From Lachnospiraceae bacterium (lineage in GTDB: Bacteria > Bacillota > Clostridia > Lachnospirales > Lachnospiraceae): DNA of 64,000 nt. The notes below the pieces were generated by a model. The model made no database searches. It was given only the letters and a program-made list of their open reading frames with translations, and was not told the DNA's origin. Below, in pieces: positions 40,302 through 58,451 of the stretch. A program made the position numbers and the translations under genes. The stretch lies in assembly GCA_024692905.1 (NCBI GenBank), contig JAILLY010000066.1, forward strand, positions 2,912 to 66,911, given 5' to 3'. Positions within the stretch are counted from its first letter, which is position 1, and every line of letters starts with the position of its first letter.

Positions 40302-40303
40302 CT

Positions 40304-41032: not shown

Positions 41033-41070
41033 ATGCTCCTCCCTCCATTGATACTTTGGCTTTTATCATA

Positions 41071-41721: not shown

Positions 41722-41733
41722 ATTAATATTACC

Positions 41734-43239: not shown

Positions 43240-43287
43240 TACCGCCTCCAAAGACCGATAAACGTTGTGCATCTTCCCGCGTTCAAA

Positions 43288-43318
43288 GAAGGCCCCGCCA
43301 ACGACCGGCAGGGCCTTC
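43288..43318 (-). terminator. Hairpin after metY (terminator candidate, short U-tract)
   Basis: Minus strand GAAGGCCC-tgccggtcgttggcg-GGGCCTTC followed by TTTG. Confidence 0.4.
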
Positions 43319-43375
43319 AATTCGTTACAGCAATATGATTTTATTACAAAAGGCTGATATAGTACAGTATTTTTC

Positions 43376-44659: not shown

Positions 44660-44754
44660 TTTTTCTCTCCTTTGTTTTCTGTTATCTGAAATATATAAAT
44701 GTCAGTTGCTTCTTACGTATCCGTCCCCGCCGGGTACATGAGCCTTATCTGCAT

Positions 44755-44785
44755 AAAAAATCCCGGGGCTTATTCATCTCCCGGG
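44755..44785 (-). terminator. Attenuator terminator in the metY leader
   Basis: Minus strand CCCGGGAG-atgaataagc-CCCGGG then A-TTTTTT. Both arms have complementary partners inside the upstream leader ORF (CTCCCGGG at 44875-44868; GGGGGCTTAT at 44854-44845 pairs with ATAAGCCCC). Confidence 0.65.
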
Positions 44786-44814
44786 TAATCGGCATTCACT
44801 GGATCCAATATCCT

Positions 44815-44937
44815 TTAGATCTTATCGGGCTGATGCATCAAGACATAAGCCCCCGCCGTATTACTTACCCGGGAGTTCTGCATTCGGCAACAACACATAA
44901 TCTCATTTTCCTGTGCATATGTCCTGATACCGTTCAT
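44815..44937 (-). CDS. Cys/Met-rich leader peptide, 40 aa (MNGIRTYAQENEIMCCCRMQNSRVSNTAGAYVLMHQPDKI)
   Basis: AAGGAG lies 9 nt upstream of the ATG, and the ORF starts about 24 nt after the predicted TSS. Codons 14-19 are ATG TGT TGT TGC CGA ATG. A paralogous peptide sits at 50737-50850. Confidence 0.6.
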   Translation of the reverse strand: MNGIRTYAQENEIMCCCRMQNSRVSNTAGAYVLMHQPDKI

Positions 44938-44967
44938 CTCGTTTATCTCCTTTCGTTTGTTTTCCAT

Positions 44968-45006
44968 ATAATAACACCACCTGCCTACCGTGTCAATAGG
45001 TTTTAA
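44968..45006 (-). promoter_or_regulatory. metY promoter with conserved operator-like box (copy 1 of 3)
   Basis: Minus strand TTAAAACCTATTGACACGGTAGG (45006-44984). TTGACA (44996-44991), 17 nt spacer, TATTAT (44973-44968). Confidence 0.7.
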
Positions 45007-45030
45007 GAATAAATTTATGACTCTCCCGTA

Positions 45031-45765
45031 TCAATATTCAAAAGAGTCAAGGAAGCGTCTTGCGCGTTCCGTACGGGGATCCGTAAAGAACTCATCGGGC
45101 CTGCCCTCTTCAACTATCCTTCCGCCGTCTATGAACACGATCCTGTCGGCAACGGCCCGGGCAAAAGCCATCTCATGCGTTACTATGAGCATGGTCCTTC
45201 CTTCTTTCGCAAGCGACAGTACAACTTCAAGAACTTCGCGCACCATTTCGGGATCCAACGCCGCAGTCACCTCGTCAAAAAGAAGTATCTCGGGGTGCAT
45301 TATCAATGCCCGCACTATGGCCACCCTCTGTTTCTGTCCTCCGGAGAGCTGCCTGGGATACTGATCCTTCTTATTTGAGAGTCCGACCCGCTCAAGCAGG
45401 CTGACGGCCTCCCTGACGGCCTCATCCTTATTTCTTCCCTGAACCTTGACAGGCGCAAGGGTTATATTCTGGAGTATGGTCTTATGAGGGAAAAGATCGT
45501 AACTTTGGAATACCATCCCTATCTTCTGGCGGTCCTTTGCGATATCGACACCCGTGGGGTTTATGATTTTCCCGTCAAGCAGGACCTTCCCGTCCTCGAT
45601 CTTTTCAAGTCCGTTAAGGCACCTTAAAAATGTGCTCTTTCCGCAGCCCGAAGGCCCGACGATCACAACGACCTCGCCGGGATTTACCGTCATATTCACA
45701 TCATCAAGCACGGTATATCCGTCAAATTCCTTATGCAGATGCTCCACTGTGAGTATCGGATCCAT
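45031..45765 (-). CDS. Polar amino acid (cystine/glutamine-type) ABC transporter ATP-binding protein
   Basis: GPSGCGKST, LSGGQKQRV, LLFDE motifs, GlnQ/TcyN-like. Start trimmed to MDPILT (ATG 45765, GGAGG upstream). Confidence 0.88.
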   Translation of the reverse strand: MDPILTVEHLHKEFDGYTVLDDVNMTVNPGEVVVIVGPSGCGKSTFLRCLNGLEKIEDGKVLLDGKIINPTGVDIAKDRQKIGMVFQSYDLFPHKTILQNITLAPVKVQGRNKDEAVREAVSLLERVGLSNKKDQYPRQLSGGQKQRVAIVRALIMHPEILLFDEVTAALDPEMVREVLEVVLSLAKEGRTMLIVTHEMAFARAVADRIVFIDGGRIVEEGRPDEFFTDPRTERARRFLDSFEY

Positions 45766-45778
45766 ATCTTCCTCCTTA

Positions 45779-46465
45779 TCAGGCTGCCTTTTTCTCAAGA
45801 TACCGTGACAACAGGCTTATCGGCCAGCACGCGATAAAATACAACAGGAATACCGTTGCAAATACGCCGAATGCGGCATTCGGGGACGACTTTCTGTTGG
45901 CTTCGATTATCTGCTGCCCCACCTTTAGAACTTCAACTATACCTATCATCATGACAAGACTTGTCGTCTTTATCATACGTGTTATCAGGTTTATCGCAAG
46001 CGGCAGCAATCGCCGCACCGTCTGCGGTATGATCACATAAAGATATGTCTGGAGCCCTGTCATCCCCAGCGCATATGAACTCTCGTACTGGATGACGGGA
46101 ATGCTTATCAGGGCGCCTCTGACTAGATCTGCCATTTCAGCGCTCCCCCAGAACGTAAAAACGATGATCGACGCAGTCTCGGCCGAAAGATTCAGCCCCA
46201 TTGCCTTCGTGGCGCCGAAATACACGATGAACAAAAGCACCATCTGAGGCATTATCCGTACCGTTTCAAGATATATCCTTGATACGACCTTTATCGCGGG
46301 CTTATTGAGTGTCATGAGCATCCCGAGGACCAAACCTATGACAATGGAAAGCACAACGGATATCATGCTTATCTTAAGCGCTGCCATAAGTCCCGATAAG
46401 AGGCGCATCATATTATTTCCTTTGAACAGCACATCGATCCCGATGCTTTCGATAACCGGACTCAT
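45779..46465 (-). CDS. Amino acid ABC transporter permease (HisMQ/TcyLM type)
   Basis: 5-TM His/Glu/Gln/Arg-type permease with ATGA overlap to the upstream gene. Confidence 0.85.
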   Translation of the reverse strand: MSPVIESIGIDVLFKGNNMMRLLSGLMAALKISMISVVLSIVIGLVLGMLMTLNKPAIKVVSRIYLETVRIMPQMVLLFIVYFGATKAMGLNLSAETASIIVFTFWGSAEMADLVRGALISIPVIQYESSYALGMTGLQTYLYVIIPQTVRRLLPLAINLITRMIKTTSLVMMIGIVEVLKVGQQIIEANRKSSPNAAFGVFATVFLLYFIACWPISLLSRYLEKKAA

Positions 46466-47127
46466 ACCTGATCTCCGTAAATACCAAACCTTACTTTTTT
46501 CTCAACAAAACTTCCGAGCATCGATACCGGAAGCAGCATTATCATATAGAATACAACGAGCAGGAAAAGGCACTCCGTTGTATCATAATACAGCCCGATA
46601 AGATCCTTTGCCGTAAACATAAGATCCATGAGGCTGATCGCCGAAAACACACTGGTCTCCTTGAGTAAAAAGATTATATTTGCCATTACCGCAGGCATGG
46701 TGCTTATCACCGCCTGAGGAAGGATCACATACATGAATATCCGGCGCTTGGTAAATCCCAGCGCAAGTGCACTCTCAGTCTGGGAGACCGGCACGGCATC
46801 AAGTCCGCTCCTTAAAGACTCGGTCATATAGCTTCCGCCGAGCAGTCCGAGTCCCAAAATACCGCATGTTTCGGCCGGTATCGCGATCCCTGCCTTCGGA
46901 AGGCCGAAATATATGAAGAAGAGCTGGACAAGCAGAGGCGTATTCCTGAAAAGCTCAACATAAGCCTTTATTACCTTAGAGAGCACGGGAACCTTAAAAT
47001 GCAGCACAAAGGCGCCGGCAATACCTATTGCCAGCGACAGTGCTATTCCCGTCCATCCTATCCTTACAGTGAGGAAAAATGCCCGGACATATAACGGAAG
47101 ATATGAATTAAGGGCTCCTGTATCCAT
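46462..47127 (-). CDS. Amino acid ABC transporter permease (HisMQ/TcyLM type)
   Basis: 221 aa paralogue of the adjacent permease (FRNTPLLVQLFFIYFGLP). Confidence 0.85.
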   Translation of the reverse strand: MDTGALNSYLPLYVRAFFLTVRIGWTGIALSLAIGIAGAFVLHFKVPVLSKVIKAYVELFRNTPLLVQLFFIYFGLPKAGIAIPAETCGILGLGLLGGSYMTESLRSGLDAVPVSQTESALALGFTKRRIFMYVILPQAVISTMPAVMANIIFLLKETSVFSAISLMDLMFTAKDLIGLYYDTTECLFLLVVFYMIMLLPVSMLGSFVEKKVRFGIYGDQV

Positions 47128-47136
47128 GAACTGTTC

Positions 47137-47799
47137 CTATTTCTTCCTGTGATCGATCCCGGAAGCCACCTTCATTCCGAGATTCTGTATGATCTGGAAT
47201 ATGATTATGAGCAATGCTACGGTCACGAGCATTATATCCGTCTTCCATCTGTAATAACCGTAACGTACGGCTATATCACCAAGACCGCCTCCGCCGACGG
47301 TACCCGACATTGCCGAATATCCCAGCAGCACGCCCGTAGTGATCGTGGCGCCGGTAACCAGTGAAGTCTTTGCCTCCACAAGCAGTACCTTCAATATTAT
47401 CTGCATATTGCTTGCACCCATGGCCCTTGCGGCTTCGATAACTCCGGCATCGACTTCGTTGAGCGCCGATTCGACCATTCTTGCGATGTAGGGCGCGGCA
47501 CATACGACAAGGGGTACTATGGTAGCGGTGGAACCGTAACTCTGACCCACTAACGCCCTTGTGAACGGGATAAGGAGTATAAGCAGGATAAGGAAAGGGA
47601 TACTTCTTATTATATTGCAGAATATATCAAGGATCCTGTATATTATCCTGTTTGGCTTAAGGCCGCCGCTCCTTGTGACATTCAGGACAACGCCAAGAGG
47701 CAGTCCGACCGCATATCCCATAAGCGCGGAAACAAGAGTCATATACAGCGTGTCCCTTATACCTTCAAGCAGCATTTCTATTATCTTCTGATCAAACAC
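47137..47799 (-). CDS. metI: Methionine ABC transporter permease
   Basis: 220 aa MetI-like (EAARAMGAS...). Overlaps the metN stop. Confidence 0.85.
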   Translation of the reverse strand: MFDQKIIEMLLEGIRDTLYMTLVSALMGYAVGLPLGVVLNVTRSGGLKPNRIIYRILDIFCNIIRSIPFLILLILLIPFTRALVGQSYGSTATIVPLVVCAAPYIARMVESALNEVDAGVIEAARAMGASNMQIILKVLLVEAKTSLVTGATITTGVLLGYSAMSGTVGGGGLGDIAVRYGYYRWKTDIMLVTVALLIIIFQIIQNLGMKVASGIDHRKK

Positions 47800-48805
47800 C
47801 TTCCCTCACCTCCGTCACGGAAAGTCCCCTCTCCTTAAGATACGCGATTATATGATTCTGGATATCCTCATCATCCGGCAGTCCCAAAAGGATCTCACCC
47901 TTGGCCTTGCCGCCGACGTTCCTCGTATCGGCGCCGAGGATGTTTACCGGAGCGTTGAATTTAAGTATGACGTTGGATATCACGGGTTCGAATGCAGAGT
48001 TTTCGGAAAAGACTATCCTTATCACACGCTCCGACTTAAGGCTGTCTATCGGCGAATACCTGCTCTTTTTGTTTGCGATAAGCTCCCTGGCCACATCCGT
48101 CTTCGGTGAAGCAAATATCTCCTCAACCAGTCCCTCCTCAACAAGACGGCCGTTCTCGATTATCGCAACCTTGCTGCAGATATCGGTGATGACGGACATC
48201 TGATGAGTTATGACCACGATCGTGATATTCAGTTTCTCGTTTATCTCCTTAAGAAGAGAAAGGATCGACTCTGTGGTCTGGGGATCGAGCGCACTCGTTG
48301 CCTCATCACACAGAAGTATATCCGGATTTGTCGCAAGTGCTCTTGCTATCGCTACACGCTGCTTCTGTCCGCCCGAAAGCTGTGACGGGTATGACTTTTC
48401 CTTATCGGAAAGATTGACCGTATCAAGCAGCTCCCTTGCCTTCTCCCTTGCCTTTTTCTTCGGCATCCCGGATATCTCAAGAGGAAAGCAGACATTATCG
48501 ATCACGTTCTTCTGCTCAAGCAGATTGAAACCCTGAAAGATCATGCCTATATCCCTTCGTTTTATCCTGAGTTCCTTTTCCGAAAGCTTTGAGAGATCGG
48601 TACCGCCTATGAGTACACGGCCTTCATTTGGTACCTCAAGATAATTGATCGAGCGGACCAGCGTACTCTTGCCGGCCCCGGACATACCTATTATCCCGTA
48701 TATCTCACCCTTTTCGATACTGAGGCTGACATCATTAAGCGCAACGATCTCATGGCCTCCCGCTTCAAACCTTTTGGTCAGGTTCTTGATCTCTATCTCA
48801 CTCAT
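47792..48805 (-). CDS. metN: Methionine ABC transporter ATP-binding protein with C-terminal NIL domain
   Basis: GMSGAGKST, LSGGQKQRV, LLCDE, plus a NIL-type C-terminus (VIRIVFSENS...ILGADTRNVGG). Confidence 0.9.
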   Translation of the reverse strand: MSEIEIKNLTKRFEAGGHEIVALNDVSLSIEKGEIYGIIGMSGAGKSTLVRSINYLEVPNEGRVLIGGTDLSKLSEKELRIKRRDIGMIFQGFNLLEQKNVIDNVCFPLEISGMPKKKAREKARELLDTVNLSDKEKSYPSQLSGGQKQRVAIARALATNPDILLCDEATSALDPQTTESILSLLKEINEKLNITIVVITHQMSVITDICSKVAIIENGRLVEEGLVEEIFASPKTDVARELIANKKSRYSPIDSLKSERVIRIVFSENSAFEPVISNVILKFNAPVNILGADTRNVGGKAKGEILLGLPDDEDIQNHIIAYLKERGLSVTEVREGV

Positions 48806-48843
48806 ATTAAACTCCTGCCGTTCATATTAAAATTTCAATCCCC

Positions 48844-48871
48844 ATTATACACGAAAAGCATGGATTGTGAA
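48844..48871 (-). promoter_or_regulatory. Candidate internal promoter ahead of metN
   Basis: Minus strand TTCACA (48871-48866), 16 nt spacer, TATAAT (48849-48844). Confidence 0.4.
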
Positions 48872-48881
48872 CCCGGCCCGG

Positions 48882-48913
48882 AAAAATATCCGGGAGGGCT
48901 TATGCCCTCCCGG
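48882..48913 (-). terminator. Intra-operon terminator/attenuating hairpin after the fused SBP gene
   Basis: Minus strand CCGGGAGGGC-ataa-GCCCTCCCGG (10-bp stem) then ATATTTTT. It starts 8 nt after the SBP stop. Confidence 0.7.
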
Positions 48914-48920
48914 GAGATAT

Positions 48921-50609
48921 TTAACCTTCAAAGAATACCACTGCTCCGTCATAAGTGTCTTCGATGAACTTCTTGATGTCATCAGACCTTAATACCTTGA
49001 CGAGAGCCTGGATCTTTGCATCATTCTCATGTCCCTCGTATACCGCGATGATATTAACGTAGGTCTTGGCCGCGACCGAATCCGTTGCCTCATAAGCTAT
49101 GGAATCATGTCCTACGGAATATCCTGCCTCAAGAGCATAGTTTCCGTTGAGTACAACGTATGAAACCTCACTGACGACCCTTGCGACCTGAGCCGCTTCA
49201 AGCTCGACAAACTTGATCTCATAGGGATTTTCGGTGATGTCGTTAACCGTGGCGGTAAGTCCGGCACCGTCCTTTAACGTAAGCAGTCCGTTGTCCTGAA
49301 GAAGAAGGAGTGCCCTTGCCTCATTGGTGGTATCATTGGGGATCGCTATCGTATCACCCTTTGCGATCTCATCGAGAGTCTTCTTGGTACCGGGATAGAT
49401 ACCGAAGGGTTCGTAATGGATATCGCCGGCATCGACAAGATGGGTTCCCTGCTCCTCATTGAAGCTGTTAAGATAAGGTACATGCTCTACATAGTTTGCA
49501 TCAAATTCACCTGATTCAACTACAAGGTTAGGCTGAACATAATCTTCAAACTCAGTTATCTCAAGCTTGTATCCGTGCTGTTCAAGAATCTTTGCTGCTT
49601 CTTCAAGTATCTCCGCATGAGGTATGGGAGAAGCGGCGATCTTTATAACCTCACCGTTTCCGTCCGGAATGTCGAGATCGGAAGCGGCTCCCGTTGAAAC
49701 AGGTGCGGCAACGACAGCGGTGTCTCCGCCTCCCTCAACTACGAGCGTATCCTCATAATCCTTTCCGTAGGTGTCGATAAGAGTGGCCTCATAATCCGCA
49801 TGGAAGAAATTCTCGTTTCCGAGTGCCTTTATCTCATCATTAAGCCAGTCAAGAAGTGTGCTGTTTCCTTTGCTTACGGCGGGAGCTATCGTATCCTGGC
49901 TTCCGAGTGAAGGGATGCCGACAACATATCCCTCGTTCTCAAGCGAATAAGCTATGACCTCTGTATTGTCGTTTGCCCATGCAACGCCTGTTCCGTTCTC
50001 AAACGATGTTTTTGCGGTTGCATATGTATCAAACTTCTGAAGCTTTATCTCCGGGTTGTTCTTCTCAAGATACGTCTCGGCCGTGGTTCCGGATATAACG
50101 ATCACCTGTTCATCGGCACCTATCTGATCAAGGCTCTCGATCACATGATCCTCATGCGAAACGACTCCGAGTGCAACATTCATATAAGGAAGGGCAAAGT
50201 CAACCTTCTCGGCCCTTTCTTCCGTTACCGTGAAGTTTGCAAGTATTATATCGACCTTGCCTGTCTCAAGATATTCAACCCTGCTTGCAGCCTCGGTTGA
50301 AACATAATTGATCTTAACTCCCAGATCCTTTCCTATCCTTTCGGCAAAGTATACGTCATATCCCTGATACTGTCCGTTCTCATCCACATATCCGAACGGA
50401 TTCTTATCGGAAAATACTCCGATGTTGATCTCACCGCTTGCCTTGATCTCATCAAGCGTCCTGTAGATCCTGTTTGCATCGTTCGTTGTTTCAGGGGCCG
50501 TACTCTGGACGGGAGCCGCTGCGCCTGCTGCGCACCCTGCGAGAAGTCCTCCGGTGAGTACTGCAGCCAGTGCTGTCCTTAACACATTCCTAAGTAGTTT
50601 TTTCTTCAT
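48921..50609 (-). CDS. Fused two-domain substrate-binding lipoprotein: SBP_bac_3 (polar amino acid/cystine-type) N-half plus MetQ/NlpA (methionine) C-half
   Basis: Lipobox LLAGC. Residues about 50-290 resemble family-3 amino-acid SBPs (GEINIGVFSDKNPFGYVDENGQYQGYDV...). Residues about 320-562 resemble MetQ (KIAASPIPHAEILE..., IAIPNDTTNEARALLLL). Confidence 0.8.
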   Translation of the reverse strand: MKKKLLRNVLRTALAAVLTGGLLAGCAAGAAAPVQSTAPETTNDANRIYRTLDEIKASGEINIGVFSDKNPFGYVDENGQYQGYDVYFAERIGKDLGVKINYVSTEAASRVEYLETGKVDIILANFTVTEERAEKVDFALPYMNVALGVVSHEDHVIESLDQIGADEQVIVISGTTAETYLEKNNPEIKLQKFDTYATAKTSFENGTGVAWANDNTEVIAYSLENEGYVVGIPSLGSQDTIAPAVSKGNSTLLDWLNDEIKALGNENFFHADYEATLIDTYGKDYEDTLVVEGGGDTAVVAAPVSTGAASDLDIPDGNGEVIKIAASPIPHAEILEEAAKILEQHGYKLEITEFEDYVQPNLVVESGEFDANYVEHVPYLNSFNEEQGTHLVDAGDIHYEPFGIYPGTKKTLDEIAKGDTIAIPNDTTNEARALLLLQDNGLLTLKDGAGLTATVNDITENPYEIKFVELEAAQVARVVSEVSYVVLNGNYALEAGYSVGHDSIAYEATDSVAAKTYVNIIAVYEGHENDAKIQALVKVLRSDDIKKFIEDTYDGAVVFFEG

Positions 50610-50698
50610 AATATTTCCCTCTTTTCTTTTATGATATATTGTTTCTTTCCGTATCGTTACTGTTACATTTATCTCCGAGTCCTTTATGTCCCGGCATC

Positions 50699-50724
50699 AA
50701 AAAAGCCCGGGATCTCTCCCGGGC
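50699..50724 (-). terminator. Attenuator terminator in the transporter-operon leader
   Basis: Minus strand GCCCGGGA-gaga-TCCCGGGC (8-bp stem) followed by TTTTTT. The 5' arm plus loop (GCCCGGGAGA) is a perfect 10-nt complement of TCTCCCGGGC (50795-50786) inside the leader ORF. Confidence 0.8.
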
Positions 50725-50736
50725 TCAGACTCGATC

Positions 50737-50850
50737 TTAACAGTGTGCATGACACGGAAGCCATACACGCCTAAGCCTTACATCAGCCCGGGAGAATAGC
50801 ATTCGACACATACACATCATACAACAGCCATTCATATATAAGCTTCTCAT
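50737..50850 (-). CDS. Cys/Met-rich leader peptide, 37 aa (MRSLYMNGCCMMCMCRMLFSRADVRLRRVWLPCHAHC)
   Basis: AAGGAGG lies 7 nt upstream of the ATG. Eight of nine consecutive codons (9-17) are Cys or Met. It shares the C-R-M-x-x-S-R core and CGAATGC...CTCCCGGG nucleotides with the metY leader ORF. Confidence 0.65.
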   Translation of the reverse strand: MRSLYMNGCCMMCMCRMLFSRADVRLRRVWLPCHAHC

Positions 50851-50880
50851 TGTCCTGCCTCCTTTCGATTCAATGGTAAT

Positions 50881-50920
50881 AAAATACACCCTAATTCCTA
50901 CTGTGTCAATAGGTTTTTAA
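50881..50920 (-). promoter_or_regulatory. Transporter-operon promoter with conserved operator-like box (copy 2 of 3)
   Basis: Minus strand TTAAAAACCTATTGACACAGTAGG (50920-50897). TTGACA (50909-50904), 17 nt spacer, TATTTT (50886-50881). Confidence 0.65.
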
Positions 50921-50927
50921 AAAAATT

Positions 50928-51179
50928 TTAATCCCCTACCTTTTTAATGTATAACTCAAACGTTCCGTCCTCATTATCAACGAGCTTAAGTACCTCGTGG
51001 CCCTCCTCCTTAACGCTCCTTGGCACGTTATTGACCGGTTCACCGTCATTTAAGTGGACCTGAAGTACCTGACCCTCATCAAGCTCATCAAGAGCGACCT
51101 TGGTCTTTACAAAGGTCACGGGACAGTTCACATCCGTAATATCAACAGTATCATCAACTTTAATATCTATCTCAGCCAT
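50928..51179 (-). CDS. TusA/SirA-like sulfurtransferase
   Basis: 83 aa from ATG 51179 (AAGGAGG 5 nt upstream). Conserved Cys in VNCPVTF and a two-layer alpha/beta pattern typical of TusA. Confidence 0.7.
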   Translation of the reverse strand: MAEIDIKVDDTVDITDVNCPVTFVKTKVALDELDEGQVLQVHLNDGEPVNNVPRSVKEEGHEVLKLVDNEDGTFELYIKKVGD

Positions 51180-51223
51180 TTTTTCCTCCTTTTGCGGGTC
51201 CCCGCAAAATACTTGTTTTATCA

Positions 51224-51652
51224 TCAGATCACGATCAGCTCTTCTTTTCGTACAGTCTTCTCTCCTTCTGCTTTCTCAATATGAAATGCATTAAGAACGG
51301 GGTTTTCTTCCTCCATGAGCGAAAGGATCAGATAACTCGCGCTGCTGTCATTGGCCAGCCGCTTATCTTCCTCTGACGGACGCGAGGGTGACGCCGGATG
51401 GGAGTGCCAGTTTCCGAGCGGTTTAAGGGCTCTTGCTCTCATATCCTTTACCGCATTGAGCTGTTCATGCGGATCGATCGTAAAATGCTCGCTGGTATGA
51501 TCGGTATTTGTCAGTATGTATACCTTACATATTTCCCGCACGCCATCCCTGCGATCGACTCCCGCTATCAGTCCGCAGGCTTCGTTCGGGCTTTCCTTAA
51601 GAGAGTGTTCATATATCATTTCAAAATCGCTGCGCTTTATCGTTATCTTCAT
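51224..51652 (-). CDS. JAMM/MPN+ metalloprotease (Mov34 family), copy 2
   Basis: NEACG glutamate motif and HSHPASPSRPSEED (HxHx7Sx2D). Start at ATG 51652 with GGAG upstream. Confidence 0.85.
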   Translation of the reverse strand: MKITIKRSDFEMIYEHSLKESPNEACGLIAGVDRRDGVREICKVYILTNTDHTSEHFTIDPHEQLNAVKDMRARALKPLGNWHSHPASPSRPSEEDKRLANDSSASYLILSLMEEENPVLNAFHIEKAEGEKTVRKEELIVI

Positions 51653-51706
51653 ATATTCTCCGTTCAACTATCATATGTGGTTCCAGCAGCAGCATCCAAA
51701 GAAAGA

Positions 51707-52522
51707 TCATTTGGACTGCTTCAGTTCACACTCCGCCTGCTCATAATCGATAAGCTCCGTTATCGTCGGTTCATCCGAACATACGGCACATCCCTTTCCG
51801 CGGGGAGGAAGCTTTATCTTATGAAATTCCATCTTAAGCGCATCATAAGTCAGCAGGTATCCCGAAAGCAGTTCGCCCGTACCCGTTATATACTTTACCG
51901 CCTCCATTGCCTGAAGCGAACCGATCACGCCGCCCATGGCTCCGATGACTCCGGCCTGTTTGCAGGTTGGGACCGCATCCTTTGGGGGCGGATTCTTAAA
52001 TATACATCTGTAGCAGGGGCTCTCGCCGGGGATTATCGTGGTGAGCTGCCCCTTGAACCGTATGATGCCGGCATGTGATAAGGGCTTTTTTTCCATCACA
52101 CATGCATCGTTGATAAGAAATTTTGCGGGGAAATTATCTGTCCCGTCCAGGATAAAATCATAATCCCTTATAAGCTCGCGTATGTTTGTACTGTTAACGA
52201 ACTGATAATAGGTATTCACAATCACATCCGGATTGATCGCACGCATGGTCTCTGCGGCTGATTCTACCTTCTTCTTCCCTATATCGGGTGTCGTATGTAT
52301 GACCTGCCTCTGAAGATTGGACAGATCGACAACATCTGCATCCGCTATGCCTATGGTTCCCACGCCGGCAGCGGCAAGATAAAGTGCGGCCGGTGCTCCG
52401 AGTCCTCCGGCACCTATTATGAGGACTTTTGCATTGAGCAGTTTTTTCTGCCCTTTTACGCCGATCTCCTTTAATATGATATGTCTTGAGTAACGCTCCA
52501 GCTGTTCATTTGTAAAAGCCAT
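51707..52522 (-). CDS. ThiF/MoeB/HesA-family E1-like adenylyltransferase
   Basis: RYSRHIIL..., GAGGLGAPAALYLAAAGVG nucleotide loop, CYRC and CAVC zinc pairs. TAATG overlap with the ThiS-like gene. Confidence 0.88.
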   Translation of the reverse strand: MAFTNEQLERYSRHIILKEIGVKGQKKLLNAKVLIIGAGGLGAPAALYLAAAGVGTIGIADADVVDLSNLQRQVIHTTPDIGKKKVESAAETMRAINPDVIVNTYYQFVNSTNIRELIRDYDFILDGTDNFPAKFLINDACVMEKKPLSHAGIIRFKGQLTTIIPGESPCYRCIFKNPPPKDAVPTCKQAGVIGAMGGVIGSLQAMEAVKYITGTGELLSGYLLTYDALKMEFHKIKLPPRGKGCAVCSDEPTITELIDYEQAECELKQSK

Positions 52523-52731
52523 TAAAGCCTTCCTCCTCCCATGAAGTATAAGAATTCGACCTCATCACCTTCGTTAAGAGCATGACTGTCAAAACTGCCT
52601 TTATCGATGAACTCCTCATTTACCGATACAGTCACATATTCCGGAGTTTCCACGTTTTCCTGCTCAATAAGCGCAGCGACCGTGATCCCGTCCGCAACTT
52701 CTTTTTTCTCTCCAGCTATAGTGATCTTCAT
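52522..52731 (-). CDS. ThiS/MoaD-like ubiquitin-fold sulfur-carrier protein with C-terminal extension (…FMGGGRL)
   Basis: 69 aa with a beta-grasp pattern (MKITIAGEKKEV...GDEVEFLYFMGG). The diglycine is followed by 2-3 extra residues. Strong RBS AGGAGGG. Confidence 0.8.
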   Translation of the reverse strand: MKITIAGEKKEVADGITVAALIEQENVETPEYVTVSVNEEFIDKGSFDSHALNEGDEVEFLYFMGGGRL

Positions 52732-52759
52732 GATCTTCCCTCCTGTAGTGTTTATTCTC

Positions 52760-53770
52760 TTAAATTATGTAGTACCACTCATCGCTCTGGCTTAATTCTT
52801 CACTTCTTATCTCGTTTTTGTCTGTCCGGTATTCCATCTCAAGATTCTTCATGCTGACCCTTGTGTTCGCATCGATGGAACAGGTGATGAATGCATTTCC
52901 TCCAATGACGGCATTCTCACCGATGACAGTCTCTCCTCCGAGGATTGATGCACCGGCATAGATCGTAACGTTATCGCATATGGTCGGATGTCTTTTCCTG
53001 CCGGAAAGTCTCTGCCCGCCTCTTGTGGAAAGAGCTCCTATCGTGACACCCTGATAAATCTTGACATTTCTGCCTATGACCGCCGTCTCGCCTATAACTA
53101 TCCCCGTACCGTGATCTATGAAGAAATATTTATCGATGGCCGCCCCCGGATGTATGTCTATGCCCGTCTTACTGTGCGCATATTCCGTCATGAGTCTCGG
53201 AAGAACGGGCACCTGTTCAAGATACAGCTCATGGGCCAGCCTGTACACCGTGATCGCCATCAGGCCGGGATATGCAAGAATGATCTCTTCATAACATCCC
53301 GCTGCCGGGTCCCCGTCATAAGCAGCCGAAAGATCCGTCTCTATATACTCACGTATCTTTGGTATCCTGGCAAAGAATGCCTTGCAGATACGGTAACTTT
53401 CCCGCTTCCTTTCATCATCGGTAAGGGTTCCCCTTTTTCTGCAGTAATCAAGGGCCAGATACACCTGTTTGCTCAGATGATAAAATATATCCTCGATGAT
53501 GACGGCAAAACTGTTCCTTGGATTATATATCTTGTAAGAGCGGTCCCTGAAATAACCCGGAAATATTATCCTGAAAAGATTTCTTATAAGTTCATGAACC
53601 TCTGCTTTGTCAGGTTTGTTATATATATTGACCTCATCGATATGTTTTTTTCCTTCAAAATCCTCAAATATGTTTTTGACGATAAGATCTATCTCTTCTT
53701 CCCTTATTATCTCATTCACCGGTATTCTCCTTATATCCTCATGTACTGCCGGATCCATCCGGCAGCACAT
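52760..53770 (-). CDS. Serine O-acetyltransferase, long form (about 150-aa N-terminal domain), encapsulin-operon associated
   Basis: C-terminal hexapeptide SAT core (GIDIHPGAAIDKYFFIDHGTGIVIGETAVIG). 336 aa. The N-terminus reads MCCRM. Confidence 0.85.
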   Translation of the reverse strand: MCCRMDPAVHEDIRRIPVNEIIREEEIDLIVKNIFEDFEGKKHIDEVNIYNKPDKAEVHELIRNLFRIIFPGYFRDRSYKIYNPRNSFAVIIEDIFYHLSKQVYLALDYCRKRGTLTDDERKRESYRICKAFFARIPKIREYIETDLSAAYDGDPAAGCYEEIILAYPGLMAITVYRLAHELYLEQVPVLPRLMTEYAHSKTGIDIHPGAAIDKYFFIDHGTGIVIGETAVIGRNVKIYQGVTIGALSTRGGQRLSGRKRHPTICDNVTIYAGASILGGETVIGENAVIGGNAFITCSIDANTRVSMKNLEMEYRTDKNEIRSEELSQSDEWYYII

Positions 53771-53782
53771 GAAGGCATTACT

Positions 53783-55504
53783 TTAAGCAAATGTCTTTAA
53801 TACTTTAACCAGTGCATCAATGTCATCCGGAGAATTATAAAGCGCGATAGTCGGCCTTACCGAACTTTCATATCCGAAACGGCGCAGAACCGGCTGCGCA
53901 CAGTGATGTCCCGTGCGAACAGCTATCCCGTAGCTGTCAAGCCTCTTTCCGACCTCTTCATCCGAATATCCGTCAAGCTTGAATGACAATGCCGATGACT
54001 TGTTGAGTGCGGTCCCTATAAGATGAAGTCCCTTTACCATTTTCATCTCTTTCATGGCATATGTTAAAAGTTCATGCTCCCAGCGGTAAACGCAGGGCAT
54101 GCCGATATCGGTAAGATAGGAAAGCGCCGCGCCAAGACCGACAGCATCGGCTATGCTTCCCGTTCCGGCTTCGAATTTGTTCGGGGCGGGATTATATATC
54201 GTCCTTTCAAAAGTCACATCCGCGATCATATTTCCGCCGCCGTGATAAGGCCTGGCTGCCTCGAGCAGTTCCTTCTTTCCGTAAACCGCTCCTATGCCCG
54301 TCGGAGCAAAGATCTTATGTCCGGAGAATACAAAGAAATCCGCATCAAGCGCCGATACATTCACCGGTATATGTGCCACCGACTGGGCTCCGTCAATGAG
54401 TATGCGTACTCCGTGCCTGTGTGCGATTGCAATGAGCTCCTCAACCGGAGTGACTGTTCCAAGCACATTGGACACATGGGTCACCGCAACAAATCTGGTC
54501 CGCTTTGTGAAAAGCTTCTCATACTCATGAAGTATGAGCTGACCGGTCTCATCGCAGGGTATAACCTTTATCACCGCACCCGTTTCCTGGGCTATCAGCT
54601 GCCAGGGAACTATGTTCGCATGGTGTTCAAGGATCGAGACGATGATCTCGTCTCCGGGTTCGAGCATCGGCTTTACATAAGCATTTGCCACGAGGTTTAT
54701 ACCTTCGGTCGTGCCTCGCACGAAGATGATCTCATCAGATGAAGGCGCACCGATAAAATCGCGCACGATATCCCTTGCTTTTTCGTATGCATCCGTCGAT
54801 CTTGCCGCCAGAGTATGGGCACCCCTGTGCACATTGCTGTTCTCATGCCCATAATAATACGAGAGTCTGTCTATAACGGCCTTTGGACGCTGCGTGGTCG
54901 CTCCGTTATCGAGCCATATCAGCGGATTGCCGTTTATCTGCTCTTTGAGGATTGGAAAATCATCCCTGATCTGGGCAAGCGACTTGCTGCCTATCCTTAT
55001 CTGGTCGTTCCTCGACGAAGCGGGGGCTGCCTTTGAGGCATCGCCGCTGACACTGTCACCTCCAAGCGATGTGGGGACATCTATCCTGCGGCCTTTTTCA
55101 TACGCCTGCGCCTGAGACATGACTGTCGGGGAATAACTCACGCTCTTTTCACCGGTAAGCACGGGTATATCCCCCATACCGGGGATCATTTCCGCCTCCG
55201 GAGCACTTACCGCCTCAACCGTCTGAAGATACTGATCGGTGTATCCCCCGCCGTAAGCGAAAGGGTGCTCCCAATCAAACGGTTCTGTCACCGGTGTGCT
55301 CAAGCCCGGGATTTCTCCGGCCGTTCCGGCATACGTGCCGGTCGAAGGTATATTCACTTCGGGAACGGATGCTGCCGGTATATCTGTCTCGGGAATACCG
55401 TATACACCTTCCGTAAGATCCGGAAACATCTCATTTGCAAGAATACTGAGTTCTCCCGCGCTTAAGATGCCGTCAGGATTATCAATCGTAATCATAATAT
55501 TCAC
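53783..55504 (-). CDS. SufS/CsdA-type cysteine desulfurase with about 170-aa disordered N-terminal extension (predicted encapsulin cargo)
   Basis: The catalytic part has HHANIVPWQ, SGHK (PLP lysine) and RTGHHCAQP (active-site Cys). The ORF-track start is GTG 55504 and an ATG at 55495 is also possible. It overlaps the encapsulin 3' end. Confidence 0.88.
   Translation of the reverse strand: MNIMITIDNPDGILSAGELSILANEMFPDLTEGVYGIPETDIPAASVPEVNIPSTGTYAGTAGEIPGLSTPVTEPFDWEHPFAYGGGYTDQYLQTVEAVSAPEAEMIPGMGDIPVLTGEKSVSYSPTVMSQAQAYEKGRRIDVPTSLGGDSVSGDASKAAPASSRNDQIRIGSKSLAQIRDDFPILKEQINGNPLIWLDNGATTQRPKAVIDRLSYYYGHENSNVHRGAHTLAARSTDAYEKARDIVRDFIGAPSSDEIIFVRGTTEGINLVANAYVKPMLEPGDEIIVSILEHHANIVPWQLIAQETGAVIKVIPCDETGQLILHEYEKLFTKRTRFVAVTHVSNVLGTVTPVEELIAIAHRHGVRILIDGAQSVAHIPVNVSALDADFFVFSGHKIFAPTGIGAVYGKKELLEAARPYHGGGNMIADVTFERTIYNPAPNKFEAGTGSIADAVGLGAALSYLTDIGMPCVYRWEHELLTYAMKEMKMVKGLHLIGTALNKSSALSFKLDGYSDEEVGKRLDSYGIAVRTGHHCAQPVLRRFGYESSVRPTIALYNSPDDIDALVKVLKTFA
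54995..55504 (-). other. Predicted intrinsically disordered cargo-loading domain of the desulfurase
   Basis: Low-complexity Pro/Gly/Ser/Thr-rich region. It contains GELSILANEMFPDL, which resembles the LARLANEFF-type loading motif reported for family 2A encapsulin cargo. Confidence 0.55.
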
Positions 55505-56438
55505 CTACTTCTACATCCTCAAGCACCGCTATCGCATCATCCGCAAGTATCGCAGCCGAGCAGTACAGAGATAATAAGTAAGATGCCACTCCCTTATCAT
55601 CGATGCCTCTGAAACGCACCGACAGTCCTCTTGAATGTTCGTTCTTGAGTCCTGCCTGGAATAATCCGACAACACCCCTCTTTGCTTCACCCGTACGGAT
55701 GAGAAGGATGTTGGTCTTTCCGCTTTCGGACTTGGGATTCTTAAGTCCGTCAACCAGGAGCTTGTCCGTAGGGATCACAGGGATCCCCCTCCATGTAAGG
55801 AAGTTTCCTCCTGCAATGTTTACAACTACAGGCGGTACACCCCTCTTCGTGCACTCTCTCTCAAATGCTGCGATAGCCCTGGGGTGAGCAAGGAAAAATG
55901 AGGGCTCCTTCCATACCTTGGTTATGAGTTCATCAAGATCATCGGGCGTAGGTGCACCGTTGCGTGTCTGGATCCTCTGGGAATCAGGCACGTTCTTCAA
56001 AAGGCCGTAATCATCATTATTGATCAGCTGGCTCTCCTGACGCTCCCTTAAAGACTCGATCGCAAGTCCGAGCTGCTCCTGGACCTGATCGTAGGGTACA
56101 CTGTAAACATCCTCCACGGATGTGTTCACATTGATGATCGTTGAGATCGAATTAAGGACATATTCGCGGGGTTTCGTCTCATACTCAACATATCCCTGCG
56201 GAATTATGTCTGACTTTTTCGTCTGGGAGCAGAGCACGTCGAGCGGGGTTTCGCCTTCAACCACCCTGTTCACCCTGTAGATACCGGTCTCCAGCCCCTT
56301 GAACTCAAGGAATTTGGTGAGCCATCTGGGGGTGAGTGCTCCAAACTGGGGCTTGGTCTTGGTAATGTTCGCAAGATTATAGGCCGCCTGAGAATCAAGC
56401 GCGTTGATCCCCTCTTTCTTAACTGTTTCGTTTGCCAT
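55482..56438 (-). CDS. Family 2A encapsulin shell protein (SrpI-like, HK97 fold)
   Basis: 318 aa from ATG 56438 (GGAGG 7 nt upstream). Motifs I recall from SrpI-type shells: LTPRWLTKFL, GIYRVNRV, KPREYVLNSISTIINV, ERQESQLIN, TRNGAPTPDDLDELITKVWKEPSFFLAHPRAIAAFERECTKRGVPP, LLSLYCSAAILADDAIAVL. No cNMP-binding insertion. Confidence 0.8.
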   Translation of the reverse strand: MANETVKKEGINALDSQAAYNLANITKTKPQFGALTPRWLTKFLEFKGLETGIYRVNRVVEGETPLDVLCSQTKKSDIIPQGYVEYETKPREYVLNSISTIINVNTSVEDVYSVPYDQVQEQLGLAIESLRERQESQLINNDDYGLLKNVPDSQRIQTRNGAPTPDDLDELITKVWKEPSFFLAHPRAIAAFERECTKRGVPPVVVNIAGGNFLTWRGIPVIPTDKLLVDGLKNPKSESGKTNILLIRTGEAKRGVVGLFQAGLKNEHSRGLSVRFRGIDDKGVASYLLSLYCSAAILADDAIAVLEDVEVGEYYDYD

Positions 56439-56518
56439 TTCAGTTCCTCCTGTCTTATGATTGATCATTTTCTATTAGATAGTCTGCTCCTGACAGACGT
56501 ATCCATCGTAAATATATA

Positions 56519-57976
56519 TCAGAGCCATGCGCCCTCGTGCGAAAACATGATATCCTTCATCGCCTCTATACCGCCCTTTAAGTTGTACATCGGGCCGTTA
56601 TACCCCGCTTCCCTTAACGTATTGATCGCGAGGATGCTTCGTTTGCCCTCCCTGCAGACAAAGACCGTATCCTTATCCGGATCAAGTTCATCCTTTCTCC
56701 TTGCAAGCTGGCCTATCGGGATCACTATCGCATCCGGGAAACGCATTATCGAGCGCTCGTGCGGTTCACGTACATCGATTATGGTCATGGGATCCTTGTC
56801 CTCTATTCGCCTGGCGAGTTCCTCCGGAGTGAATCCTTCGACAGGGATCTCATCTTCCGCAGTTTTAAGATGGCAGAATTCCTCGTAATCAAAATCCTCA
56901 ACCCTGAATATCGAGGGATCTGCCCCGCATATCGGACACTTACGGTCCTTCTTCACCTTAACGATCCTGGATCCGAGATACAGGCTGTCGATCGTAAGCA
57001 GCCTGCCGTCAAGATGTTCTCCTATCCCGATGATCAGTTTAAGTGCTTCATTTGCTGCGATGCTCCCGATGATTCCGGGCAACGGACTTATCGTGCCGCC
57101 CTCCGCACATGTCGGGACAAGCCCCGGCTCAGGCGGTTCGGGAAACAGGCATCTTAAACAGGGACCTCCGTTAAGATTGAAGATGCCGACCCTGCCTTCA
57201 TACTGGTATATCGCCCCGAATACCAGGGGTATGCCCAGAAGTGCACAGGCATCGTTTATAAGATATCTGGACCTGTGATCGCCGGTGCAGTCTATCACAA
57301 GATCGTAGCCGTCGATCATGGATACTATGTTGTCGGCATTGATCCTTTCATTCTCCGATTCAAAATTTATGTTCCTGTTGGTGTTCCTGACTGTATCCCG
57401 TGCCGATGCCACCCTGGGACGCTTAACATCACGGGCACTGTGTATTACCTGACTCTGAAGGTCTTCAAGAGAAACATCATTATCATCGACCACTTTTATC
57501 GTTCCGACACCTGCTGCCGCAAGATACTGGATAACGGGCGAACCCAGCGCCCCCGCCCCCATGACAACGACTCTTGACGCTTTGATCCTCTTCTGGCCCT
57601 TGACTCCTATCTCTCTTAGCAGAAGATGTTTGCCGAAACGTTCAACCTCCTGATCGTCAAGACCGACTTCCTTCCTCCGTTCATCCGGTATGAGATTATC
57701 CGAAGGCGCACCTCCTGCGATCGACGGTAGCAGGAGTACCTCATCATCGGGTTTTAGTTTTCTGTACCACTGATCGGGTTCACTCCTGTCCTCATCCCCG
57801 ACATATAACCTTATAAAGCTGTTAAGTCCTCCGTCTGCATTGAATATCACCTTTTTTGAATCCGGATATTCATCGGTCAGGAAATTGAGGATACTTTTAA
57901 TATCATCCCCCGAAACTTCCACGAAACTGTTCCTTCCGAAAAATCCCCTTAAAGTAGCCGATATATAAACCTTCAT
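56519..57976 (-). CDS. Triple fusion: MoaD/ThiS-like Ubl domain (ends ...LLLPSIAGG) plus ThiF/MoeB E1 adenylyltransferase plus C-terminal rhodanese
   Basis: Residues 1-92 show a beta-grasp pattern with a diglycine at the junction. E1 core GAGALGSPVIQYLAAAGVG with CLRC/CPIC. Rhodanese active loop VCREGKRS. Confidence 0.85.
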   Translation of the reverse strand: MKVYISATLRGFFGRNSFVEVSGDDIKSILNFLTDEYPDSKKVIFNADGGLNSFIRLYVGDEDRSEPDQWYRKLKPDDEVLLLPSIAGGAPSDNLIPDERRKEVGLDDQEVERFGKHLLLREIGVKGQKRIKASRVVVMGAGALGSPVIQYLAAAGVGTIKVVDDNDVSLEDLQSQVIHSARDVKRPRVASARDTVRNTNRNINFESENERINADNIVSMIDGYDLVIDCTGDHRSRYLINDACALLGIPLVFGAIYQYEGRVGIFNLNGGPCLRCLFPEPPEPGLVPTCAEGGTISPLPGIIGSIAANEALKLIIGIGEHLDGRLLTIDSLYLGSRIVKVKKDRKCPICGADPSIFRVEDFDYEEFCHLKTAEDEIPVEGFTPEELARRIEDKDPMTIIDVREPHERSIMRFPDAIVIPIGQLARRKDELDPDKDTVFVCREGKRSILAINTLREAGYNGPMYNLKGGIEAMKDIMFSHEGAWL

Positions 57977-58432
57977 TTACTTCTGTCCTCCAATTATGAT
58001 CACCGGCCGCACCGCCTTTGTACAGGTATCCTGTCCGGACTTATCCGGGAGCATTCTTATATAACCGGCCGTCTCCGTACAGCCCTTCTCATCCACCGAT
58101 ACGATCACATATATCAAACCGGGTACAGCATGCTTAATATCTTCATCCGAGCATATTGCGGGCTTGTCCGGATGTGAATGATAAAAGCCAAGCAGATCCA
58201 TCCCGGCTGTTTCCGCCTCGTTCTCTATCTGCCGGAGCTGACCGGCATCTATGCGGTAGCCCTCAGCCGCACTTATTCCGGAAAGTGTATTCCGAGCGGG
58301 CCTTACCATATTAATCCGCCGTGTGTCCTTATACCCAAGCAGTGCTCCGCATCCCTCGCAGGGATATGCACGGCTTAAATGCTCTCTCATGAGTTCATAT
58401 TCATCATTGTCAAACCAAACAACATCTTCCAT
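57977..58432 (-). CDS. JAMM/MPN+ metalloprotease (Mov34 family), copy 1
   Basis: PCEGCG glutamate motif and HSHPDKPAICSDED (HxHx7Sx2D). Confidence 0.85.
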   Translation of the reverse strand: MEDVVWFDNDEYELMREHLSRAYPCEGCGALLGYKDTRRINMVRPARNTLSGISAAEGYRIDAGQLRQIENEAETAGMDLLGFYHSHPDKPAICSDEDIKHAVPGLIYVIVSVDEKGCTETAGYIRMLPDKSGQDTCTKAVRPVIIIGGQK

Positions 58433-58451
58433 ATGATACCGTCAATGGCCT

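Follow-up and report, generated by a model that had tools for sequence, protein, structure and literature searches.

In Firmicutes, the genes of methionine and cysteine metabolism are thought to be under the control of S-box riboswitches, T-boxes, and CymR-type repressors, and leader-peptide attenuation, a textbook mechanism, is considered rare outside Proteobacteria and Actinobacteria. Two amino acids can be sensed by one attenuator, as in thr (Thr and Ile) or ilv. Here, we analyze a 64,000-nt stretch of a Lachnospiraceae bacterium genome (GenBank assembly GCA_024692905.1, contig JAILLY010000066.1, positions 2,912 to 66,911 of the forward strand), referred to below as the window, in which a short open reading frame (ORF) carrying a run of Cys and Met codons overlaps a terminator/antiterminator pair upstream of a Met/cystine-type ATP-binding cassette (ABC) transporter operon.

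The logic of classical attenuation has been summarized previously (bioRxiv 10.1101/834739), and several described systems resemble this arrangement in part. In mycobacteria, polycysteine short ORFs such as Ms5788A are leaderless and exert translational control by sequestering a downstream Shine-Dalgarno (SD) sequence (bioRxiv 10.1101/834739), and no terminator hairpins were found for actinobacterial Cys leader peptides (PMC1262725). The uORFC-8-2 motif, which precedes cysS of Rhodobacterales, is predicted to act by transcription attenuation and combines tandem Cys codons with a terminator stem and U run (PMC8632094). In Bacilli, His leader peptides were predicted before hisS/hisZ paralogues, and "regular" leader peptides were reported there as a novelty in Firmicutes (PMC2965389). 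An earlier interpretation of the window made from its letters alone (the sequence-only reading) had proposed trp/his-type attenuation at the leader and knew of no Cys/Met leader-peptide attenuator in Clostridia. In agreement with the latter point, no Cys/Met or Met-codon leader attenuator from Clostridia, Lachnospiraceae, or Firmicutes was found in the literature searched, which gave only the actinobacterial, Rhodobacterales cysS, and Bacillus His cases and the coverage of which is incomplete so that absence is no proof; searchable literature likewise yielded no leader-peptide attenuator with Met codons.

Results

A Cys/Met leader upstream of the transporter operon

Our analyses indicate that the leader is, very probably, a ribosome-mediated transcription attenuator that senses the charging of tRNA-Cys, together with Met; the charging of tRNA-Met is probably reported by the switch as well. 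By its sequence and gene context, the switch would most likely turn on genes for the uptake and synthesis of sulfur amino acids in this gut or rumen bacterium when Cys or Met run short. The elements of this first copy (leader 1) are given below; all coordinates of leaders 1 and 2 are window positions, and the elements are read on the minus strand.

50881..50913, minus strand: promoter region of leader 1 (promoter scan)
50909-50904, minus strand: -35 element TTGACA, inside the conserved motif CCTATTGACACAGTAGG at 50913-50897
50886-50881, minus strand: -10 element TATTTT, 17 nt from the -35 TTGACA
50864-50858, minus strand: SD sequence AAGGAGG, with a 7-nt spacer to the ATG at 50850-50848
50850-50737, minus strand: leader ORF 1, 37 codons, peptide MRSLYMNGCCMMCMCRMLFSRADVRLRRVWLPCHAHC, stop codon TAA at 50739-50737
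50826-50800, minus strand: codons 9-17, CCMMCMCRM, the regulatory run and proposed site of ribosome stalling
50808-50798, minus strand: segment 1, TGTCGAATGCT, comprising the last Cys codon, the CGA-ATG pair, and CT; candidate 5' strand of a protector helix
50795-50785, minus strand: segment 2, TCTCCCGGGCT, the antiterminator 5' strand, within ORF codons 19-22
50768-50745, minus strand: inner hairpin GTGTATGGC, loop TTCCGT, GTCATGCAC, enclosed by the antiterminator and part of the ON fold
50726-50699, minus strand: intrinsic terminator GAGCCCGGGA, loop GAGA, TCCCGGGCTT, T6 run (terminator scan)

The minus-strand sequence and the promoter scan confirm what had been claimed for the beginning of this transcript, namely a predicted transcription start site about 24 nt 5' of the leader ATG, which leaves a 5' untranslated region (UTR) of about 24 nt, followed by AAGGAGG, a 7-nt spacer, and a 37-codon ORF. 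Also as described, eight of nine consecutive codons specify Cys or Met; they fall at codons 9-17 and comprise four Cys, four Met, and one Arg codon. The terminator scan recovered the proposed hairpin with its gaga loop and T6 run; its core, GCCCGGGA-gaga-TCCCGGGC plus TTTTTT (50724-50699), has a 10-bp stem and lies about 90 nt 5' of the start codon of the substrate-binding protein (SBP) gene. The 10-nt complementarity reported between the ORF and the terminator 5' arm plus loop is exact (TCTCCCGGGC at 50795-50786 against GCCCGGGAGA at 50724-50715) and in fact extends to 11 nt, with TCTCCCGGGCT at 50795-50785 facing AGCCCGGGAGA at 50725-50715. The latter, segment 3, is the terminator 5' arm plus loop and the pairing partner of segment 2.

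When all six frames of the 64-kb window were scanned for six consecutive codons with at least five Cys/Met, two or more of them Cys, only two sites were returned, leader 1 and a position at about 44898. The features of leader 1 are not a chance occurrence, because only these two runs exist in the window, because the element is conserved in dozens of genomes and metagenome contigs, and because the second copy is recognized with a high score by a covariance model, as follows.

A second copy and a widespread family

The second site belongs to a complete leader (leader 2, 44937-44755) directly 5' of a metY-like gene, which we propose it controls. Its elements are as follows.

44968..45000, minus strand: leader 2 promoter, with motif CCTATTGACACGGTAGG at 45000-44984, -35 TTGACA at 44996-44991, and -10 TATTAT ending at 44968
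44937-44815, minus strand: leader ORF 2, 40 codons, peptide MNGIRTYAQENEIMCCCRMQNSRVSNTAGAYVLMHQPDKI, with its own SD and the ATG at 44937
44898-44881, minus strand: codon run MCCCRM (six-frame scan)
44875-44865, minus strand: segment 2 of leader 2, CTCCCGGGTAA, 11 nt
44788-44778, minus strand: segment 3 of leader 2, TTACCCGGGAG, exact complement of its segment 2
44785-44762, minus strand: weak terminator CCCGGG-N12-CCCGGG, then T6 at 44760-44755

The promoter matches the consensus at 11 of 12 positions. The terminator is weaker than that of leader 1, and its loop, longer than 8 nt, made it escape the simple scan.

For the wider distribution, one genome per species was scanned, which gave 80 loci for the fused binding protein that opens the operon behind leader 1 (69-88% identity), nearly all of them from Lachnospiraceae isolates or metagenome-assembled genomes of rumen and gut. 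An SD-led short ORF with a Cys/Met run lies 5' of the SBP gene in 50 of the 80, so that the comparative search suggested by the sequence-only reading found the small ORF conserved. The core motif TGY-CGA-ATG-N5-CTCCCRGG is present in 46 of these loci, in addition to the two window sites. A covariance model (R1) was built from 35 genome-derived leaders; leader 1 scores 117.8 bits, a value that is not independent because its sequence is in the training set, and leader 2, which is absent from that set, scores 86.6 bits (E = 5e-18). The same search of the 64-kb window gave no matches beyond the two leaders. A pattern scan of metagenomes added at least 120 stretches, and in the first 100 of these, to which the model was applied, R1 recognizes 81 sites at E≤1e-3. 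The case first noticed is one member of a large family with a second copy in the same window, and the family, with more than 120 distinct examples, is apparently undescribed. Cultured carriers include Lachnospiraceae bacterium XBB2008 (locus L042, with two copies) and YSD2013 (L045).

Among 128 instances of the element, the first downstream gene encodes the SBP of a Met/cystine-type ABC system in 62 and a MetY-like enzyme, often followed by CysK, in 39; the remainder are an ABC permease (4), a GDSL gene and then such an SBP (2), a PP-loop protein (1), and unclassified genes (13), and the contig ends before any downstream gene in 7. The element is thus consistently associated with the uptake and synthesis of sulfur amino acids. 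Some genomes or contigs carry two or more copies before different sulfur amino acid operons (e.g. L129:11724-11923 and L042:300-560). Other leaders form divergent classes of unrelated sequence (L055, L067, and L073 (MKQQT..MCMCMMCC), and L071), in which the Cys/Met run is kept and an in-ORF complement of the leader's own, different terminator arm follows 9-17 nt after it. A profile search with the leader peptides against 5.8 billion proteins returned 46 short ORFs, unnamed or annotated as "hypothetical" and none with a Pfam domain, which is evidence against a known peptide family.

Indications of codon-level reading of the leader

Reading frame was assessed in 111 unique leaders with an SD and an ATG within 100 nt. 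In 98 of them (88%, against one-third expected), this ATG shares the frame of the TGY-CGA-ATG codons, and in 96 that frame is open. An SD of at least 4 nt stands at matching spacing in 50 of 51 leaders. Of 984 codons in the eight positions before CGA, 457 are Cys or Met in frame 0, compared with 146 and 26 in the other two frames. Cys is encoded by both TGT (254) and TGC (41). Position -1 is Cys in all 111 leaders, as set by the search pattern; position -2 is Cys in 73% and Met in 20%, position -3 is Met in 50% and Cys in 33%, and position -4 is Met in 32% and Cys in 21%. Order and number vary freely, as in MCMCCC, MCCMCMCC, MMCC, and CCWCMC. Cys is the core signal and Met a frequent companion.

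The remainder of the peptide is not maintained. Its N-terminal part varies in sequence and length, and its C-terminal half is not conserved as a peptide: a 2-nt insertion in the window leader, L053, and L037 shifts the frame while the nucleotides stay aligned. The frame statistics, the permutation of codons, and the unconserved C terminus therefore argue against a functional peptide and for sensing at the codon level. The Arg-Met pair after the Cys run is always CGA-AUG in members of the main class (window positions 50800-50805 and 44881-44886), and the third base of CGA is invariant in all 35 pattern-free aligned leaders (alignment A1, the genome leaders). This pair may slow the ribosome or pause RNA polymerase.

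Mutually exclusive folds and their spacing

Base pairing was evaluated in A1 and in a second alignment, A4, of 78 distinct metagenome sequences. The antiterminator, formed by segment 2 and the terminator 5' arm, is 99% paired in A1, where column pair 114/232 is AU in 22, GC in 12, and GU in one sequence, and alternation between CAG (Gln) and CGG (Arg) in the leader covaries with U or C of the terminator arm. The inner hairpin is 93% paired, with column pair 137/160 occurring as UA (15), CG (9), and UG (8); a small hairpin at the stop codon also covaries, and the terminator is 86.6% paired. Numbers from A4 are to be read in the light of its being fitted to the structure model, with part of segment 2 set by the search pattern: there, the antiterminator is 98.9% paired, the inner hairpin is 92.5% paired with six of six pairs covarying, and the ON fold as a whole is 86.5% paired, compared with at most 58% with partners slid. 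Two-sided changes occur in 20 of 27 pairs, in 203 cells against 59+/-8 in shuffles. An extension helix, ATGG[CT]C:G[AG]CCAT, is a probable part of the fold; it is 64-69% paired in the alignments, a value that comes partly from 1-nt register shifts. A hairpin that includes segment 3 and runs straight into four or more U is present in 107 of 123 unique leaders.

The loop UCAUUU recurs in both the inner and the stop-codon hairpins of relatives (A1 columns 147-152 and ~181-190; e.g. L022 and L032) and is the complement of the AAAUGA context at the leader start codon. Leader 1 of the window has no stop-codon hairpin.

In 35 of 35 aligned leaders, segment 2 lies exactly 14 nt 3' of the last Cys codon, counted from the first base of that codon. 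By established footprint dimensions, the ribosome shields about 12-13 nt on the downstream side of its A-site codon, which would place the beginning of segment 2 just outside a ribosome stalled at the last Cys. The best folds with either the terminator or the antiterminator forced were compared for the 35 leaders, and the difference in free energy was expressed as ON minus OFF (ddG). Without a mask, the two folds are almost equal in energy (mean ddG -1.1 kcal/mol). Masking a ribosome footprint at the last Cys brings the mean to -2.6 kcal/mol, and masking the initiation region too brings it to -4.4 kcal/mol, with the antiterminator favored in 31 of 35. A footprint at the stop codon gives +2.0 kcal/mol, with the terminator favored in 21 of 35. 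In these models the directions of the shifts, toward ON at the last Cys and toward OFF at the stop codon, fit the attenuation logic.

Candidate OFF-state helices

Two further pairings are conserved. In the first, the start region of the leader, with consensus CAUGACAAAUGAG, is the reverse complement of an in-ORF segment X, CUCAUUUGUCAUG. This helix is 85% paired in A1, compared with 25-49% when slid, and six of its pairs show two-sided changes; its sequences differ between subfamilies, e.g. GGAGGCGCGGACAUG with GUCUGCGUCCU, and it is strong in, for instance, L022 and L032. The best duplex that the start region can form with downstream leader sequence has a median energy of -13.9 kcal/mol among 122 unique leaders, of which 49% reach z<-2. 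The start region:X helix appears in about 15 of the 35 forced-terminator folds and never together with the antiterminator; it crosses the antiterminator, and the nested-only folding model cannot represent both together. In the second pairing, segment 1 (UGY-CGA-AUG-CU) can pair with the inner hairpin's 5' strand (segment 2a), which lies 13-17 nt after segment 2. This helix is 83% paired in A1 against at most 51% when slid, is G-U rich, and is weak in both window copies.

Three other candidate pairings were rejected. Pairing of the SD with segment 2 (an anti-SD) as protector would comprise no more than 4-5 bp and relies on a codon, the one preceding Ser, that varies, so that it is no general feature; pairing of segment 2 with the following GCCGGG works only in Arg (CGG) variants; and pairing of CGAAUG with the loop of the stop hairpin needs a bulge and fails in CAGAU variants, the segment 1:2a helix, itself unproven, being preferred.

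A shared promoter motif

The conserved motif at the leader promoters, CCTATTGACAnnnTAGG, is a CCTA/TAGG inverted repeat around the -35 element. Three exact sites occur in the window, against 0.38 expected.

50897-50913, minus strand: CCTATTGACAnnnTAGG site at the leader 1 promoter
44984-45000, minus strand: CCTATTGACAnnnTAGG site at the leader 2 promoter
61327-61343, minus strand: CCTATTGACAnnnTAGG site at the promoter of the nifS-nifU operon

The nifS-nifU sulfur operon thus has the motif but no leader. In related loci, the motif also lies 5' of most leaders, divergent classes included, and in one locus (L085) an Rrf2 gene is divergent to one copy. CCTATTGACAnnnTAGG may be the operator of a shared transcription factor, and its operator-like form suggests that control at the protein level is probably also present at the leaders.

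Putatively regulated genes and sulfur neighborhood

The genes behind the two leaders, assigned by Pfam, are as follows.

45031..50609, minus strand: operon behind leader 1
50609-48921, minus strand: fused SBP_bac_3 and NlpA/MetQ-like binding protein, 562 aa, lipoprotein-like, the first gene of this operon
44659-43376, minus strand: MetY-like Cys/Met-metabolism pyridoxal phosphate (PLP) enzyme (PF01053, E=2e-135), after a 370-nt gap following the operon

Operon 1 encodes the SBP fusion, a MetN-like ATPase that carries a NIL domain, three permeases (the first MetI-like), and another ABC ATPase. The SBP_bac_3 half of the fusion is of the cystine/amino acid type and the other half of the NlpA/MetQ type, and two ABC permease/ATPase sets are encoded downstream. 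The two-domain fusion is kept in at least 80 Lachnospiraceae species, and the gene order of the operon is repeated behind the leader in related loci.

On the 5' side of leader 1, Pfam matches on the minus strand identify NifS, NifU, a Cys/Met PLP enzyme, a JAB protein, a ThiF-rhodanese protein, an SrpI-like encapsulin, and a cysteine desulfurase, and the same sulfur cluster continues with a serine acetyltransferase-like protein, ThiS, ThiF, JAB, and TusA. Two sulfur-carrier gene sets are present, at 50928-52731 (ThiS-ThiF-JAB-TusA) and 56519-59684 (Cys/Met PLP enzyme, JAB, and ThiF-rhodanese), both on the minus strand; they suggest protein-thiocarboxylate-dependent synthesis of Cys or homocysteine beside the attenuated operons. 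Between them lies an encapsulin region (52760-56468, minus strand) with an SrpI-like type 2A shell gene (55482-56468), then the gene for a 573-aa cysteine desulfurase (53783-55504) with an N-terminal extension of about 195 aa, and next a serine acetyltransferase-like gene. An arrangement of encapsulin and cysteine desulfurase cargo thus sits in a Lachnospiraceae sulfur island.

Discussion

The trp/his-type logic put forward by the sequence-only reading is supported by the reading frame, the regulatory codons, the 14-nt spacing, compensatory base changes, the terminator, and the downstream genes. From these features we infer the stalling, its timing, the role of the extra helices, and the response in vivo as follows. 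Transcription would start about 24 nt 5' of the strongly initiated 37-codon ORF, and when Cys or Met is scarce, the lead ribosome would stall in the run (50826-50806), its A site occupied by a Cys or Met codon. The footprint of this ribosome would stop just short of segment 2 (50795-50785), leaving it free to pair with the terminator 5' arm (50725-50715) once the arm has been transcribed. The antiterminator would then close a three-way ON fold around the inner hairpin, no terminator would form, and transcription would continue into the operon of the Met/cystine ABC transporter. With charged tRNAs in good supply, the ribosome would pass segment 2 and the inner hairpin and reach the stop codon, the terminator (50724-50705 plus U6) would then form, and transcription would stop. 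In most members, this OFF state would be reinforced by the start region:X and segment 1:2a helices; segment 1 would lie under a ribosome stalled in the run, and a stalled or queued ribosome would occupy the start region, so that their partners in the ON fold would be freed.

Several observations weigh against this interpretation. The leader ORF extends 45-60 nt past segment 2, and the distance from stop codon to segment 3 has a median of 30 nt (only about 12 nt in leader 1). A ribosome at the stop codon is off segment 2, and simple covering alone therefore cannot explain termination. Of the two halves of the switch as proposed by the sequence-only reading, stalling that leaves the antiterminator free fits the spacing and the masked folds, and covering of the antiterminator by fluent translation is too simple an account. 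The two further conserved pairings probably supply the default OFF state, although each has a weakness of its own: for the two window copies, the start region:X duplex reaches only -9.7 and -6.5 kcal/mol (z ~0), and the segment 1:2a helix shows no covariation, because its 5' strand never varies. The terminator of leader 2 is weak, with six GC pairs and a 12-nt loop, the ON fold of this leader is favored by 4.4 kcal/mol, and many family members have only two or three Cys codons. No leader is present at L001, the nearest orthologous locus (88% SBP identity); at L001:3900-4000, the SBP gene follows an unrelated gene after a spacer of about 100 nt that contains no element. The leader is therefore not obligatory for the operon and has been gained or lost among close relatives. 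The fitting of A4 to the structure model, mentioned above, belongs among these points.

Other explanations were considered. The conserved RNA might be a switch that binds a ligand, a tRNA, or a protein, with the ORF incidental to it; this would suit the helices that covary beyond coding (the inner hairpin, the stop-codon hairpin with its UCAUUU loop, and start region:X), the invariance of CGAAUG at the nucleotide level, third CGA base included, and the operator-like promoter motif, with which control at the protein level is probably present too. We nevertheless regard such a switch as improbable, as no Rfam family, T-box, or S-adenosylmethionine (SAM) model scores, even at E≤10. At the gathering threshold, Rfam found only a tRNA in the whole window and no riboswitch, T-box, or leader family in 17 related loci, and cmscan of 40000-56000 at E≤10 gave nothing relevant, which counts against the known riboswitches and T-boxes that the sequence-only reading had named as competitors. 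Moreover, 88% of leaders have an SD-ATG in frame with the run, Cys and Met codons permute in order and number with interchange of TGT and TGC, sequence-unrelated leader classes keep both run and geometry, and the 14-nt distance from stall site to segment 2 agrees with a ribosome footprint.

The peptide itself might act instead. In nascent-peptide arrest of the TnaC/SpeFL type, the sequence C-R-M-[LF]-x-S-[RQ]-A would stall the ribosome on a small molecule rather than through tRNA charging. The peptide alignment shows R, M, and S as invariant and C as nearly so, the family profile has L or F at +2 and R or Q at +5, and the invariance of CGA-AUG is only partly accounted for by RNA pairing. Yet the antiterminator strand codes for x-S-[RQ]-A, and whether Q or R is present covaries with the terminator arm, which therefore points to selection at the RNA level; by this evidence, most of the apparent peptide conservation of C-R-M-L-x-S-R/Q-A would be accounted for by RNA pairing. 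As divergent classes lack the motif and keep the Cys/Met run, and as induction of uptake and biosynthesis genes on starvation suits codon sensing better, arrest of this kind appears slightly more improbable still. Least likely of all, and very unlikely in our view, is a functional Cys-rich small protein, either a metal or redox peptide or the precursor of a peptide made on ribosomes and modified after translation (RiPP), exported by the adjacent ABC system. Such a product would fit a Cys-rich peptide that adjoins an ABC transporter and has homologues sometimes called as hypothetical proteins; however, its C-terminal half changes frame between close relatives with the nucleotides aligned, and it has no match to a Pfam family. 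No maturase or radical-SAM gene is adjacent, the neighbors being importer and biosynthesis genes, the transporter is a binding protein-dependent importer with MetNIQ-like and SBP_bac_3 components, and the element also occurs before metY/cysK operons without a transporter.

Starting from leader-peptide attenuation, a more detailed model may be envisaged, which we offer tentatively and consider rather less likely to hold in full than to fail in some part. In this model, the OFF state of a Cys and Met attenuator would be set by a long-range helix that sequesters the leader's own SD and start region by pairing them with a segment near the 3' end of the ORF, occupancy of that region by a stalled or queued ribosome would be read along with the position of the lead ribosome, and an N-terminal spacer of about 9-16 codons would be tuned for one queued ribosome. 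Together with CCTATTGACAnnnTAGG, the leaders would constitute an unrecognized sulfur amino acid regulon of gut and rumen Lachnospiraceae and the first Met-codon-sensing leader peptide.

From a physiological point of view, the family seems to govern the uptake as well as the synthesis of sulfur amino acids in abundant gut and rumen Lachnospiraceae. It would provide a compact, portable sensor of Cys and Met charging. It would also explain many "hypothetical" ORFs of 35-45 aa, and its long-ORF, start-site-sequestering architecture may offer a handle on how ribosome position and queuing become a transcription decision. The cultured carriers make the family directly testable.

Comparison with known systems places these leaders closest, in mechanism, to the classical attenuators of E. 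coli and Salmonella (trp, his, thr, leu, ilv, and pheA), with which they share an SD-led short ORF with clustered codons of the pathway, a mutually exclusive antiterminator and terminator, and regulatory codons about one ribosome footprint from the antiterminator 5' strand. They differ from these in lacking any sequence relationship, in their Firmicutes host, and in their Cys and Met specificity; in addition, the ORF spans the antiterminator strand and the inner hairpin before it stops, a median of 30 nt before the terminator arm, and the candidate OFF helix uses the leader's own SD and start region instead of, or beside, a segment 1:2 hairpin. Points in common with the mycobacterial and actinobacterial Cys leaders are a short upstream ORF with consecutive Cys codons, Cys-related genes, and a regulon of several loci read by the ribosome, whereas the leaders described here have an SD, a 5' UTR, a terminator/antiterminator pair, and Met codons too; with its SD, its 5' UTR of about 24 nt, and its intrinsic terminator, the window leader is not a leaderless short ORF. 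The uORFC-8-2 motif, on the other hand, is alphaproteobacterial, occurs only before cysS, has two Cys codons inside its first stem and no Met codons, and is unrelated to the Lachnospiraceae leaders in sequence and structure. The His leaders of Bacilli are comparable as one of the few predicted leader-peptide attenuators of Firmicutes, where T-boxes are the norm, but concern another amino acid, other genes, and another order (Bacillales), and show no sequence similarity. S-box (SAM-I) riboswitches and Cys or Met T-boxes act on the same targets (metNIQ-type transporters, metY, and cysK) with the same intrinsic-terminator output in the 5' leader, whereas the Lachnospiraceae leaders have neither an aptamer nor a tRNA-binding architecture and match no Rfam model. 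The predicted mechanism thus matches classical leader-peptide attenuation, and what appears to be new is the specificity for Cys with Met, the phylum-level context, the long ORF that runs across the switch, and the candidate self-sequestration of the leader start site.

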